A stretch of DNA of 64,000 bases from a phage (GCA_018015315.1 GCA_018015315.1_3629.1), one strand, 5' to 3'; numbered from the stretch's first letter, positions 15,871 to 21,541 are shown. Numbers and translations: made by a program. Notes: generated by a model not told the origin, from the letters alone.

Positions 15871-15945
15871 TGGTGGCCCTGGGTGGAATTGAACCACCGT
15901 CTGGCGATTATGAGTCGCTTGCTTGAACCTTCCAGCTACAGGGCC
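15871..15945 (-). tRNA. tRNA-Met (anticodon CAT; initiator, elongator or Ile-lysidine not distinguishable)
   Basis: perfect 7-bp acceptor GGCCCTG/CAGGGCC, loop CTCATAA, T-loop TTCAATT, encoded CCA. Confidence 0.8.
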
Positions 15946-15946
15946 T

Positions 15947-16022
15947 TGGTGCTGATGGCAGGACTTGAACCTGCAACATATTGATTACAAATCAATTGCA
16001 CTACCAATTGTGCTACATCAGC
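15947..16022 (-). tRNA. tRNA-Thr (anticodon TGT)
   Basis: acceptor GCTGATG/CATCAGC, anticodon loop TTTGTAA, T-loop TTCAAGT, encoded CCA. Confidence 0.8.
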
Positions 16023-16029
16023 AAAAAGG

Positions 16030-16126
16030 TGCTAGGTGATGGAATCGAACCATCTATGTATTCAACGACTACCTCGTCTATTTTCAGGATTAAAAATCCT
16101 CGCCCTTGCCAAAGGGCTTACCTAGC
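16030..16126 (-). tRNA. atypical type-II tRNA-like gene (Leu-like scaffold, apparent anticodon TTT)
   Basis: perfect acceptor GCTAGGT/ACCTAGC, D-arm, perfect T-arm GATGG-TTCGATT-CCATC, discriminator A; anticodon hairpin AGGATTTTTAATCCT; about 30-nt variable region with GACGA/TCGTT hairpin; CCA not encoded. Confidence 0.45.
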
Positions 16127-16224
16127 TCAGTATGTTGACCATGTTGCTAGTCGGCGATGACGACTGTAACATTTGATAATCCGGTTCTGCTTCCGGCTTT
16201 CGCTTAATTACAAGGTCAACAATG

Positions 16225-16315
16225 TGGCAGAGGATAATGGAATCGAACCATCATCGAGTCATCCTCAACGGGACGGTTTTCAAGACCGCTTGAGCACCAT
16301 TGCTCCCTACCCTCT
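16225..16315 (-). tRNA. tRNA-Ser (anticodon TGA)
   Basis: type-II: acceptor AGAGGGT/ATCCTCT, anticodon loop CTTGAAA, about 20-nt variable arm, discriminator G, encoded CCA. Confidence 0.7.
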
Positions 16316-16432
16316 TTTATTATAAACAATACTGATAATGACACTGATTTTCGAGCAGTTAGTGACTAGTATAAACGACGATAAATACCAATGCCATTAT
16401 CTGTATGATTTATGCATCTAAAAATATAAATT

Positions 16433-19532: not shown

Positions 19533-20087
19533 TTACTCCCCGCTGTCAATAGCAAGACTCATTGCAATAAGGTATGCCTCTTCTAATGGTAAGAGTCTCC
19601 CCCACACATCCCAACCGACATCAAACTGCCTGCCAAACAACTGCTGTGTGGTTCCGTGAGCATGACCGAACAGTTGGACTGATCCGTGAGGCTTTCTGTT
19701 CCACTTTGCAAACTGGTAATGGCTCATACAGATCAAATTCTTGTTGTGGCGAAGCTCGTAATAATCTACAACCTCATGACCGAACTCTTTCATAATTCTG
19801 ACAGTCGTCCTTGTGTCATGGTTACCACGAACAAGAATAATATGTCCGTTCAACATATTTAGAACATCTGGGAGCAATTTGTTGATATTCTTATCATTAG
19901 TGCACGCAATATCTCCCAAGTGAAACACAGTGTCTGCAGGCGACACAACAGAGTTCCACTCGGCGATGATTCCCGCATTCATACTGTCAAGATTGTGATC
20001 ATACTGAGATCTGTGTTTTTGACATGAATCAAACTCCATGACCCGCTGGTGGAGAAAGTGTGTGTCGCTTGTTACAAAGTATTTCAT
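19533..20087 (-). CDS. calcineurin-like metallophosphoesterase
   Basis: motifs DTHF, GDIA, GNHD in order; start moved to ATG (MKYFVTSDTHF) with GAGGA RBS overlapping stop of kinase gene. Confidence 0.75.
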   Translation of the reverse strand: MKYFVTSDTHFLHQRVMEFDSCQKHRSQYDHNLDSMNAGIIAEWNSVVSPADTVFHLGDIACTNDKNINKLLPDVLNMLNGHIILVRGNHDTRTTVRIMKEFGHEVVDYYELRHNKNLICMSHYQFAKWNRKPHGSVQLFGHAHGTTQQLFGRQFDVGWDVWGRLLPLEEAYLIAMSLAIDSGE

Positions 20088-20094
20088 ACATTCC

Positions 20095-20505
20095 TCATTT
20101 AAGTTTAATGCAGTTTTTAAGCTGGCGTTCCATACGATCCACAACCTTGTCTGGAACATCATGAATGCTTTTATTACCGTGGCGGTTTTCAACCACGATC
20201 ACGGTATAACTATACCCATGACTGATTGCCATGTCAACATATTCCTGCACATGTTTTTCTTTTGTAAACGTATTACTTACCACGATACGGTCGTATCCCA
20301 TACGCATCATATCTTCTACGTTATCTTTGCACCATTTTGCTGCGAGTGTTACTTTACTTGCATCCCAGTTGTAATTGCCGTCATCGTCATACCAGAACAT
20401 ATCGTTCTCAAAATGTGGATACAGACCTTCTAAAGATAGCGCATTTGCCAGTGTTGATTTGCCAGACCCTGGCAGACCACGCACGATATATAGCATTTTA
20501 GACAT
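20095..20505 (-). CDS. P-loop kinase (polynucleotide-kinase-like)
   Basis: Walker A GLPGSGKST at N-terminus, about 135 aa; start at ATG (MSKMLYIV) with GGAGG RBS. Confidence 0.6.
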   Translation of the reverse strand: MSKMLYIVRGLPGSGKSTLANALSLEGLYPHFENDMFWYDDDGNYNWDASKVTLAAKWCKDNVEDMMRMGYDRIVVSNTFTKEKHVQEYVDMAISHGYSYTVIVVENRHGNKSIHDVPDKVVDRMERQLKNCIKLK

Positions 20506-20533
20506 AGCAATCCTCCGTTTTAATTTTAATGAT

Positions 20534-20562
20534 AGTATACCTAACTGTTTTGTTAATTTCAA
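20534..20562 (-). promoter_or_regulatory. sigma70-like promoter for kinase/phosphoesterase operon
   Basis: minus-strand TTGAAA-17 bp-TATACT upstream of RBS. Confidence 0.45.
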
Positions 20563-20623
20563 GTGTTGACACTAGGTTATTTGTGTGGCAGGATAGACTG
20601 ACAAAATGACAAATGAGGAACGT

Positions 20624-21541
20624 ATGATGAAGTATTTTAATGCAGATGACCTAGTAGACAAAGGTCTTGTAACCAGTCGGTATTATCCAGATCTTGGATT
20701 AAAGATCTATAAATATGCCAGAAAAGTATTCTACAACAATCTGTGGCATTTGTCTCCGCGTTTACTGGAGTGCCGAGGTATTGTTGTTGGCAATGAGGGG
20801 AATGTTGTGGCATGGCCTTTCACAAAAGTATTCAACTTAGGAGAAAACTCCACCAACCTACCGGACAGTAAACTTGTTACTGCGGTAGAGAAAAAGAACG
20901 GATTCCTCGGTGTGGTATCATCTCATAAAGGTGAACTATTGTTCTCAACAACCGGGTCTCTTGATTCTCCATATTGTAACCTTGCAAAGGAAACCATCCA
21001 AGAGCAATGTGGTAATTTAGATCTTATCAAGAAGGTTATGGGCAATGAAAACATGACATTCATGTTTGAAATTTGTCACCCTTCAGATCCGCATATTGTT
21101 CAAGAAGACCATGGCGCATATTTGATAGGTTGCAGATATAATGATTCTGGAATAATGCTACCAGAAGCAGCTTTAGATGGGATTGCCAAATACCTTGGTG
21201 CAAAACGTCCTCACACTGTGCGTGAAATCCCGTTCAGCTATGCAAAAGAATTAGCTGCAGAAACAAGGGGCGAAGGGTATATGATCCGTAAGCCTTACTA
21301 CCCTTATGACCTGCAGCTGAAGATCAAGTCTCCATACTATTTGGCACGGAAGGCCGTAATGAGAGGTAAAGCATGGAAGATTTGGGATGACGATATTTTT
21401 AAACGTGTTGACGAGGAGTTTTACGGTATGGTAAAATTTATTCGTAGCAACTATACAGAAGATGTGTGGAATTGCTTATTAGAGCAGGAGCGTCGCGAGA
21501 TACTGGACTGCTATTTCCACAACGAGGACTACATGAAATGA
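20624..21541 (+). CDS. RNA-ligase-like nucleotidyltransferase
   Basis: ligase motifs: I EKKNGF, III FMFEI, IV EGYMIRK, V LKIKSP; start taken at ATG 20624 after GAGGA (track start 20606). Confidence 0.5.
   Translation: MMKYFNADDLVDKGLVTSRYYPDLGLKIYKYARKVFYNNLWHLSPRLLECRGIVVGNEGNVVAWPFTKVFNLGENSTNLPDSKLVTAVEKKNGFLGVVSSHKGELLFSTTGSLDSPYCNLAKETIQEQCGNLDLIKKVMGNENMTFMFEICHPSDPHIVQEDHGAYLIGCRYNDSGIMLPEAALDGIAKYLGAKRPHTVREIPFSYAKELAAETRGEGYMIRKPYYPYDLQLKIKSPYYLARKAVMRGKAWKIWDDDIFKRVDEEFYGMVKFIRSNYTEDVWNCLLEQERREILDCYFHNEDYMK

Follow-up and report, generated by a model that had tools for sequence, protein, structure and literature searches.

A tRNA-shaped element in the tRNA operon of an rV5-like phage

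We examined an element on the minus strand (16028-16126) of GCA_018015315.1_3629.1, a 64,000-nucleotide (nt) stretch of phage DNA, referred to here as the window, in which an initial annotation had described a tRNA-like gene as atypical, its variable region being long. The genome carrying it is that of an rV5-like coliphage (Vequintavirus), whose 1-kilobase (kb) tRNA region is 99.8% identical to that of phage MiataMamis and ∼98.5% identical to those of rV5 and many relatives. ARAGORN resolves this region into a minus-strand tRNA operon with the order Arg(tct), Tyr(gta), Ser(tga), element, Thr(tgt), Met/Ile(cat), Pro(tgg), in which tRNA-Thr(tgt) at 15947-16022 and tRNA-Ser(tga) at 16225-16315 flank the element, and detects no tRNA-Lys elsewhere in the rV5-type cluster. 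A sigma-70-like promoter (TTGACA-17-TAATAT) is located upstream of tRNA-Arg, and the spacing of the element to its neighbors is tRNA-like, at 2–6 nt.

The tRNA-like character noted in the initial annotation was confirmed by gene finding, by an RNA family model, and by folding. ARAGORN called the element at 16028-16126 as an undetermined tRNA, tRNA-???, with the anticodon (atcc). The Rfam tRNA model RF00005 matched 16030-16126 with 37.5 bits (E=1.5e-5; gathering threshold 29) in an alignment that needs 26 nt inserted into the variable region and one position of the anticodon stem deleted. Folded alone, the element strand forms a cloverleaf of −34.8 kcal/mol (z=−4.0), and 0/200 shuffled sequences were as stable. 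The parts of the element are listed below, where R1 denotes a covariance model of the element's family, described in the next section.

16028..16126 (−): whole tRNA-like gene, 97-nt body plus CC; found by ARAGORN and the Rfam tRNA model, and by R1 at 16027-16126 (97.1 bits, E=4e-21)
16120..16126 (−): acceptor stem, 5′ strand GCUAGGU, partner 16031-16037; 7/7 pairs kept in 25 homologues, 4 compensatory
16102..16119 (−): A8, A9, and D arm GCCC-UUUGGCAA-GGGC; 3/4 D-stem pairs covary
16086..16100 (−): anticodon-like arm AGGAUUUUUAAUCCU, 15 nt, read from the sequence; stem pairs covary
16079..16085 (−): 5′ flank of the variable hairpin, GAAAAUA, single-stranded and near-invariant; G and four A invariant in 25 aligned sequences
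16064..16078 (−): variable-region hairpin GACGA-GGUAG-UCGUU; 5/5 pairs compensatory, 15–24 nt across lineages
16055..16063 (−): 3′ flank of the variable hairpin, GAAUACAUA, single-stranded and near-invariant; AAUACAUA invariant in 25 sequences
16038..16054 (−): T arm GAUGG-UUCGAUU-CCAUC; 5/5 pairs kept, 2 compensatory, loop matching the tRNA consensus
16028..16037 (−): acceptor stem, 3′ strand ACCUAGC, discriminator A73, and CC followed by U, which leaves CCA incomplete

Only a single base, G26, lies between the D stem and the anticodon-like arm; the D stem can be extended to 6 base pairs (bp) with a 4-nt loop, and U14 occupies a position where tRNAs normally carry A14. The variable region of the window copy spans 31 nt. 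The arm AGGAUUUUUAAUCCU can fold in two ways, as 4 bp with the loop UUUUUAA or as 5 bp with the loop UUUUA, and in agreement with the initial annotation the loop is readable as UUU and A73 is present. The proposal that collapse of the loop to 3 nt marks an abnormality did not survive, since the same energy model also collapses the arm of the phage's ordinary tRNA-Thr, and the prediction is therefore not diagnostic. The accompanying statement that CCA is not encoded was half right: the final A is missing, but CC is encoded. Relatives encode U73 followed by full CCA.

Compensatory change maintains the fold across a phage family

Comparison with the loci of related phages revealed that the element is no isolated oddity and belongs to a conserved family. 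We collected 27 distinct homologues from the Vequintavirinae genera Vequinta-, Avuna-, Seuna-, Mydo-, and Henunavirus, from one N4-like podovirus, and from metagenomes; they are 97–110 nt long, with length differences that are not multiples of three, and occur at one copy per genome. By blastn, 128 phage records carry the element, 120 of them nearly full length. Diverged copies are present in Avunavirus (Av-05, 18-1-2), Seunavirus (PVP-SE1, 4MG, KE22, and Cronobacter and Enterobacter phages), and Mydovirus (Klebsiella phages KB57, DP, and KPP-1). Further lineages came from pattern scans of IMG/VR and metagenomes, and blastn from one of these led to Erwinia phage Hena1 (Henunavirus) and Salmonella phage UTK0002 (N4-like, Schitoviridae). 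In a search for a linked protein partner, only small open reading frames (ORFs) without a Pfam match were found to adjoin the tRNA cluster, and UTK0002 has no obvious neighbor gene in common around the element. The copies in Henunavirus and in the N4-like Schitoviridae thus point to horizontal spread without a linked protein gene.

We aligned 25 of the 27 distinct sequences, setting the register of the variable hairpin, which MAFFT could not align, by hand with N padding, and built R1 from this alignment. Members score 93–116 bits with R1, a fusion in phage V18 (see below) scores 32.5 bits, and ordinary tRNAs score at most 27 bits, a clean separation of the family from ordinary tRNAs. The window copy carries the complete family signature, consisting of A8/U14, a D loop UUUG(G/U)(C/U)AA, a 15–16-nt arm, GAAAA...hairpin...AAUACAUAG, and a T loop UU(C/A)GAUU.

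Standard pairs fill 97.7% of the pair cells in this alignment, compared with 34–46% when partners are slid, and 18 of the 29 pairs show compensatory change. Two-sided changes were observed for four pairs of the acceptor stem, three of the D stem, two of the anticodon-like stem together with its loop-closing pair, five of the variable hairpin, and two of the T stem. The tertiary pair 19-56 between the D loop and the T loop is G-C in 16 sequences, U-A in 9, and broken in 0 of 25, and this switching provides strong evidence for an L-shaped tRNA elbow. A8, U14-U16, A20-A21, and A37 are invariant, while rV5-type variants differ only at wobble-tolerant stem positions, at position 9, in the hairpin loop, and in the 3′ trailer. 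These results indicate that the acceptor, D, T, variable, and anticodon-like helices and the elbow pair are under selection, and that the element is a real, conserved tRNA-shaped RNA gene in a phage tRNA operon. Cell counts overstate the number of evolutionary events, given about six independent lineages, and the invariance of the 3′ flank is partly one of ascertainment, as two collection scans required AAUACAUAG. The two conserved flanks are too invariant for a covariation test of pairing between them; as a guess, they may form a loop-E-like or UAA/GAN-like arrangement (A.G, U-A, A.A, A-U).

The initial annotation had raised the possibility of a pseudo-tRNA. A decaying tRNA gene, or a signal produced by a 59-codon ORF on the plus strand (15981-16160) or by a terminator, would be in keeping with the broken tRNA rules, with the mechanical overlap of the ORF and the hypothetical proteins annotated there in some records, and with a D arm followed by a U run that fits a terminator-like scan. 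Decay is contradicted by the pairing described above, with compensatory changes in every helix and a tertiary pair that switches unbroken through 25 sequences. The confinement of rV5-type substitutions to tolerant positions, the homologue lengths that ignore multiples of three, and the tRNA-like spacing argue in the same direction, and we regard all explanations of this kind as extremely improbable.

The family is phage-specific within the collections searched. A scan for its diagnostic motif in one representative genome of each of 100,044 bacterial and archaeal species gave no hit, and neither did blastn with the element against 5,426 complete Escherichia coli genomes; a host origin or prophage copy was rejected on these two results. 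Among natural relatives, a deletion in phage V18 has joined a 5′ portion of tRNA-Tyr to the 3′ half of the element and eliminated tRNA-Ser (L006 ∼651-746), and JES2013 is without most of the element (L007 509-730). These losses indicate that the element is dispensable in culture, as accessory counter-defense genes and phage tRNAs usually are.

Departures from decoding tRNAs

The elbow of an elongator tRNA, with G18/G19 and a T loop that forms the 19-56 pair, is present in the element, and the window copy scores above the RF00005 threshold. The 17-nt anticodon arm of elongator tRNAs (5-bp stem, 7-nt loop, U33) is absent. The arm is 15 nt long (4 bp and 7 nt) in the rV5, Avunavirus, and UCA types, 16 nt long (5 bp and 6 nt) in the Seuna/Mydo type, and never 17. 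The U8/A14 pair is likewise absent, A8 and U14 standing in its place throughout the alignment. The missing stacking layer is irreplaceable because only G26 separates the D stem from the arm, and by standard tRNA geometry the short arm should leave the anticodon rotated and shortened relative to the acceptor end. In addition, the variable region spans 31–41 nt across the family and places its hairpin between near-invariant flanks, with 7–10 unpaired bases on each side. The Seuna/Mydo forms were missed by ARAGORN and, at E<0.05, by the Rfam tRNA model.

The apparent anticodon varies on this scaffold. The rV5-like phages have UUU and Avunavirus has UAU; UCA is found in Hena1, in UTK0002, and in three metagenome contigs, and the Seuna/Mydo type has UCC, replaced by GCC in 4MG. 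Only the UUU and UAU types carry U at position 33; the UCA type has A there, and the UCC type has A, C, or U. The UCC-type copy of EC152 shares its cluster with a canonical tRNA-Gly(UCC), and Hena1 has a near-complete canonical tRNA set. Judged from its anatomy, the element is probably not a normal decoding tRNA.

Public annotation and possible decoding roles

The rV5 genome paper reports six tRNAs, the element not among them (PMC3606486), and the rV5 record has no feature at its position. Records of BASEL phages label the sequence tRNA-Lys, codon AAA; that of JLBYU08, tRNA-Stop(tta); those of slur phages, tRNA-???(atcc); and others, tRNA-OTHER, while some records place hypothetical proteins at the site. 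The Hena1 copy is annotated tRNA-sup(tca) and the UTK0002 copy is unannotated. This constitutes an annotation problem, in which one sequence goes under the labels Lys, Stop, '???', and OTHER or under no label, and in which the majority of the family lacks any annotation. The family consists of tRNA-like RNAs in phage tRNA clusters that standard tools miss or label inconsistently. The element goes unmentioned in the PARIS, Schlafen, and phage-tRNA papers, our literature search found no paper discussing it, and a keyword search for phage tRNA-like decoys returned nothing relevant.

As a side observation on the records themselves, some 18 'Campylobacter phage' entries (MG065635-MG065690; host C. 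jejuni) are 98–100% identical to rV5-like coliphages over the region of the element, which suggests mislabeled or contaminating coliphage genomes.

The BASEL label corresponds to a working, if odd, elongator tRNA-Lys(UUU) that would be charged by lysyl-tRNA synthetase (LysRS), read AAA/AAG, and supply lysine decoding when defense nucleases cut host tRNA-Lys, following the precedent of T5 against PARIS (PMC11464382). The 7-nt loop UUUUUAA with U33, A37, and A38, the A73 discriminator, the Rfam tRNA score above gathering, and the lack of any other tRNA-Lys in the rV5-type cluster all fit such a role. We nevertheless consider it improbable: the 4-bp stem lies one stacking layer below any standard tRNA, A8/U14 and the 31-nt variable region are unusual, and sister lineages use the same scaffold with 6-nt loops or A33 and in the presence of canonical tRNAs that make it redundant. 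Moreover, the features recognized by the PARIS nuclease AriB (UAAU, U39, and U16) are kept in the element, although the resistant T5 tRNA has lost them.

The Stop, '???', and sup labels suggest instead a suppressor or frameshifting tRNA, reading ochre UUA (JLBYU08), the quadruplet AUCC (the ARAGORN fold), or, in relatives, opal UCA; a recoding tRNA had also been among the proposals of the initial annotation. The alternative ARAGORN fold (stem AUUUU/AAAAU, 8-nt loop, AUCC) was rejected, as its stem is paired in 48% of cells, no more than in controls with shuffled or slid partners, and shows no compensatory change. Opal suppression by the UCA-type relatives was rejected as well. Stop codons in 52 sampled Hena1 genes are TAA in 37, TAG in 2, and TGA in 13, and such free use of TGA stops rules out efficient opal suppression by the UCA copy. 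In MaxTheCat, 36 of 40 sampled genes end in TAA, so that suppression of ochre codons would do harm. With the arm 1–2 nt short in all members and U33 not kept in the UCA and UCC lineages (A33 in the former), recoding of any of these kinds is very unlikely.

Neighboring genes and structured RNAs

Four further features of the window provide context for the element. The last three of them sit 3.4–5.4 kb from it.

16127..16224 (−): 98-nt structured RNA between tRNA-Ser and the element; its closing stem differs from those of other copies yet is complementary
19533-20192 (minus): candidate metallophosphoesterase gene; Pfam Metallophos, 5e-6
20095-20562 (minus): candidate P-loop kinase gene, polynucleotide-kinase-like; Pfam AAA_33, 2e-10
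20606-21541 (plus): candidate Rnl1-family RNA ligase gene; Pfam RNA_lig_T4_1, 9e-15

By their domain matches, the phosphoesterase, P-loop kinase, and Rnl1 ligase genes likely form a tRNA break-repair set near the tRNA operon. Their MaxTheCat counterparts are annotated as RNA ligase, polynucleotide kinase, and phosphoesterase.

The 98-nt RNA has no Rfam match and occurs in 140 phage records by blastn. Its interior is invariant (AAUUAAGCGA..CCGG-AAGCAGAA-CCGG..G(U/G)CG-UCAUCGC-CG(A/C)C), and its closing stem of 6–9 bp changes in sequence and keeps complementarity in the window, in an rV5-like contig (L018, 368-465, minus strand), in phage lambda, and in the P1-like phage D6. In L071 and L072 it is located at ∼795-880. 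The lambda copy lies ∼80 nt past tR′, between Q and S, and the D6 copy lies beside tRNA genes, upstream of tciA.

Other observations concern the tRNA cluster of the window. The Tyr-Ser spacer (16316-16432, minus strand) folds into a long imperfect hairpin (−25.9 kcal/mol, z=−3.5; 0/200 shuffles as stable) and holds a weak promoter-like match at 16397..16368. The CAU tRNA at 15871-15945 (minus strand) is tRNA-Met according to ARAGORN and the rV5 record and tRNA-Ile (codon ATA) according to BASEL annotations; in MaxTheCat, 13.7 of every 1000 codons are ATA, a usage that would be consistent with this gene encoding a lysidine-type tRNA-Ile.

Several relatives show unusual RNAs near their copy. Just upstream of the element, Seunavirus and Mydovirus carry an 'Ile GAU'-like tRNA (L035 1123-1198, L005 819-894, L034, and L031/L032/L033 1124-1198) with abnormal anticodon loops: AAGAUUC and ACGAUUC, which lack U33, the 8-nt ACAGAUCC, and the 6-nt ACGAUA. 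ARAGORN reports the DP copy with the 6-nt loop (L032) as tRNA-???(ga), and EC152 and LNA4 have tRNA-Arg(GCG) in the same slot. In some Seunaviruses, 680–865 nt between the element and tRNA-Leu are without an annotated gene or detected tRNA (L035 1309-2172 in PVP-SE1; L036 1309-1986). Metagenome contigs with a UCA-type element also carry a CUA tRNA, 'Pyl' per ARAGORN and amber-suppressor-like (L053 2791-2865, L061 7862-7934). Directly downstream of the element in the same contigs (L053 1575-1712, L061 6380-6517) there is a weak full-length R1 match over 138 nt (18.7 bits, E∼0.05), which may be another enlarged tRNA-like RNA.

A possible role as a tRNA mimic

Phage tRNA genes are now partly understood as countermeasures to tRNA-cutting immune nucleases, for which tRNA-Lys(UUU) is the commonest target. 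Of 11 bases in the loop and inner stem of the element's arm, 10 are identical to those of E. coli tRNA-Lys. PrrC, AriB, and the bacterial Schlafen protein RorSlfn5 all target tRNA-Lys(UUU) (PMC13056530; PMC12409363). AriB needs a UAAU motif and U39, with a contribution from U16 in the D loop, and its cleavage is inhibited by A41C (PMC12409363). The element reads UAAUCC, keeping UAAU, U39, and U16 and placing C at the position corresponding to 41, so that recognition features are kept together with a cleavage-impairing base. In addition, T4 mends PrrC-cut tRNA-Lys with a repair kit similar to that near the operon (PMC10264068).

The best explanation in our ranking, with a rough probability of 0.4, is that the element encodes a stable, tRNA-shaped, non-decoding mimic that baits or competes for proteins reading the tRNA-Lys loop. 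From its position and shape, the RNA would be co-transcribed with the phage tRNA operon and excised like a tRNA, by RNase P at the 5′ end and then by 3′ trimming and CCA repair. Speculatively, it could then bait host proteins that recognize the tRNA-Lys loop, or compete for them, candidate targets being the anti-phage nucleases that cut tRNA-Lys, namely PrrC, PARIS AriB, and bacterial Schlafen, and it would work beside the kinase, phosphoesterase, and Rnl1-ligase repair genes of the phage. Other lineages would present different loop sequences on the same scaffold. Taken as a whole, the notion of a non-decoding mimic is somewhat more probable than the figure given above, and the bait mechanism specifically should be held tentatively, at odds well short of even. 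A decoy had been one of the suggestions of the initial annotation, and we retain it as the most attractive functional reading, with a function that we infer.

A number of points weigh against the proposed mimic. A decoy explains neither the near-invariant flanks of the variable region nor the UCA and UCC loops of other lineages, and we know of no matching host nuclease for those loops. The phage's own tRNA-Thr(UGU) keeps the AriB-sensitive UAAUCA, so the phage does not look specifically PARIS-adapted. The covariation derives from only about six independent lineages, and two natural relatives, V18 and JES2013, have lost the element. The argument that a 4-bp stem bars use by the ribosome is one of tRNA geometry; UUUUUAA is an ordinary 7-nt loop, one base away from the loop UUUGUAA of the phage tRNA-Thr, and UUU with A73 presumably fits the identity rules of LysRS, so the window copy may have a weak or specialized decoding role. 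Furthermore, A37 is invariant across lineages, most lineages encode full CCA, and the triplet and discriminator change together in a manner that partly fits synthetase identity (UUU with A73; NCC with U73, G1-C72, and C2-G71). Together, these last features suggest that a protein reading positions 35–37, and perhaps the acceptor end, probably still selects on the RNA; this protein may be a synthetase, a nuclease, or something else.

A further alternative is a stable tRNA-like RNA whose role does not center on the anticodon loop, such as an aminoacyl carrier or sink, a ligand of a conserved host factor through the invariant flanks, or a helper in tRNA-precursor processing, with the T4 species 1 and 2 RNAs as analogues. 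The flanks GAAAAUA and GAAUACAUA are the most conserved features outside the tRNA plan, while the loop varies; most lineages encode CCA and U73; and the UCC type holds C35, C36, A37, U73, G1-C72, and C2-G71 constant with positions 33 and 34 variable. We take this constant set to resemble the identity set of glycyl-tRNA synthetase (GlyRS). Spread between unrelated phage families without a linked protein gene suggests a conserved host target, and the T4 tRNA cluster likewise keeps two stable RNAs of unknown function. Such a role fits less well with a discriminator that is A, U, or C depending on the lineage, with Avunavirus copies lacking CC, and with loops that still look like genuine anticodon loops, in which A37 is invariant and drift is not free. 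We view it as a serious though doubtful alternative.

The mimic reading can be extended to the family as a whole, which we put forward as an unlikely but consequential possibility. Enterobacterales phages may share a mobile family of tRNA mimics in which a constant, nuclease-proof scaffold (short arm, rebuilt core, enlarged variable region) carries an exchangeable loop imitating host tRNAs, and whose members would decoy or inhibit immune effectors that target tRNAs, or other host proteins that read anticodons. The loops might then correspond to Lys in rV5-like phages of E. coli, to a Gly-like tRNA in Salmonella, Klebsiella, and Cronobacter phages, and to UCA in Erwinia and N4-like phages, an assignment that we hold equally loosely. 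If true, this would represent an RNA-based anti-defense class distinct from the 'replacement tRNA' strategy of T5. More generally, a conserved, mobile, and rule-breaking family suggests that the tRNA shape has been put to a second use in phage-host conflict, as bait, inhibitor, or carrier.

Comparison with known systems

The element shares with canonical and type II tRNAs (RF00005) the 7-bp acceptor stem, the 5-bp T stem with the loop UUCGAUU, G18/G19 and the 19-56 pair, a variable-region hairpin, a CCA or CC end, and its place and spacing in a tRNA operon. Unlike them, it has a 15–16-nt arm rather than 17 nt, A8/U14 rather than U8/A14, and a variable region of 31–41 nt with conserved flanks, and neither ARAGORN nor the Rfam tRNA model detects most of the family. 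The Leu-like scaffold seen by the initial annotation did not stand up to comparison: the discriminator is A in the window and U or C in relatives, the D arm can form 6 bp with a 4-nt loop, A8/U14 is present, the hairpin is flanked by 7–10 unpaired bases where a tRNA-Leu hairpin joins the core through 1–2 nt, and no tRNA-Leu gene scores above 27 bits with R1.

Resemblance to the tRNA-Lys(UUU) of E. coli and T5 lies in UUU, A37, A38, and A73, in addition to the loop and inner-stem identity with the E. coli arm. As with T5 tRNA-Lys, the element is phage-encoded in a genome that also holds tRNA repair genes, and the T5 tRNA-Lys(UUU) rescues infection from PARIS (PMC11464382, PMC12409363). The element body differs from the type I body of tRNA-Lys, with its short variable loop: it has a variable region of 31 nt and a stem that lacks one pair, and other triplets occur on the same body. 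Unlike T5 tRNA-Lys, which has lost U39, the element retains the AriB-recognized UAAU and U39.

Like tRNA-Sec and the allo-tRNAs, which are reportedly tRNA-Sec-like with varied anticodons (Mukai et al. 2017), the element combines a long variable arm with a D stem that could reach 6 bp around a 4-nt loop, and its anticodon varies on a constant scaffold. The UCA-type loop CAUCAAA is also close to the tRNA-Sec loop CUUCAAA. The acceptor/T arrangement is 7/5, unlike the 8/5, 9/4, 8/4, or 9/3 of those RNAs, G73 is absent, and the arm is shortened. Relatives of the element reach only 29.4 bits with the tRNA-Sec model RF01852, against a gathering threshold of 47, the discriminator is A73 or U73, and UCA occurs in some lineages only.

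RNAs of tRNA shape that selection maintains without use as ordinary adaptors include the tRNA-Other of Bacillus cereus and the tRNA-like module of bacterial Y RNA (YrlA), to which the element is similar in spirit, in different organisms and with different sequences. The Rfam YrlA model gave only chance-level matches near the element, overlapping neighboring tRNAs. The T4 species 1 and 2 RNAs (rnaC and rnaD) differ from the element in length, at 139 and 119 nt, and in architecture. Homology to them was rejected, as R1 found in T4 only tRNA-Thr and tRNA-Leu, at 20–24 bits, and nothing at rnaC/rnaD. In genomic setting, these small stable RNAs, which lie inside a phage tRNA cluster and have tRNA-like ends, are the closest analogues of the element.

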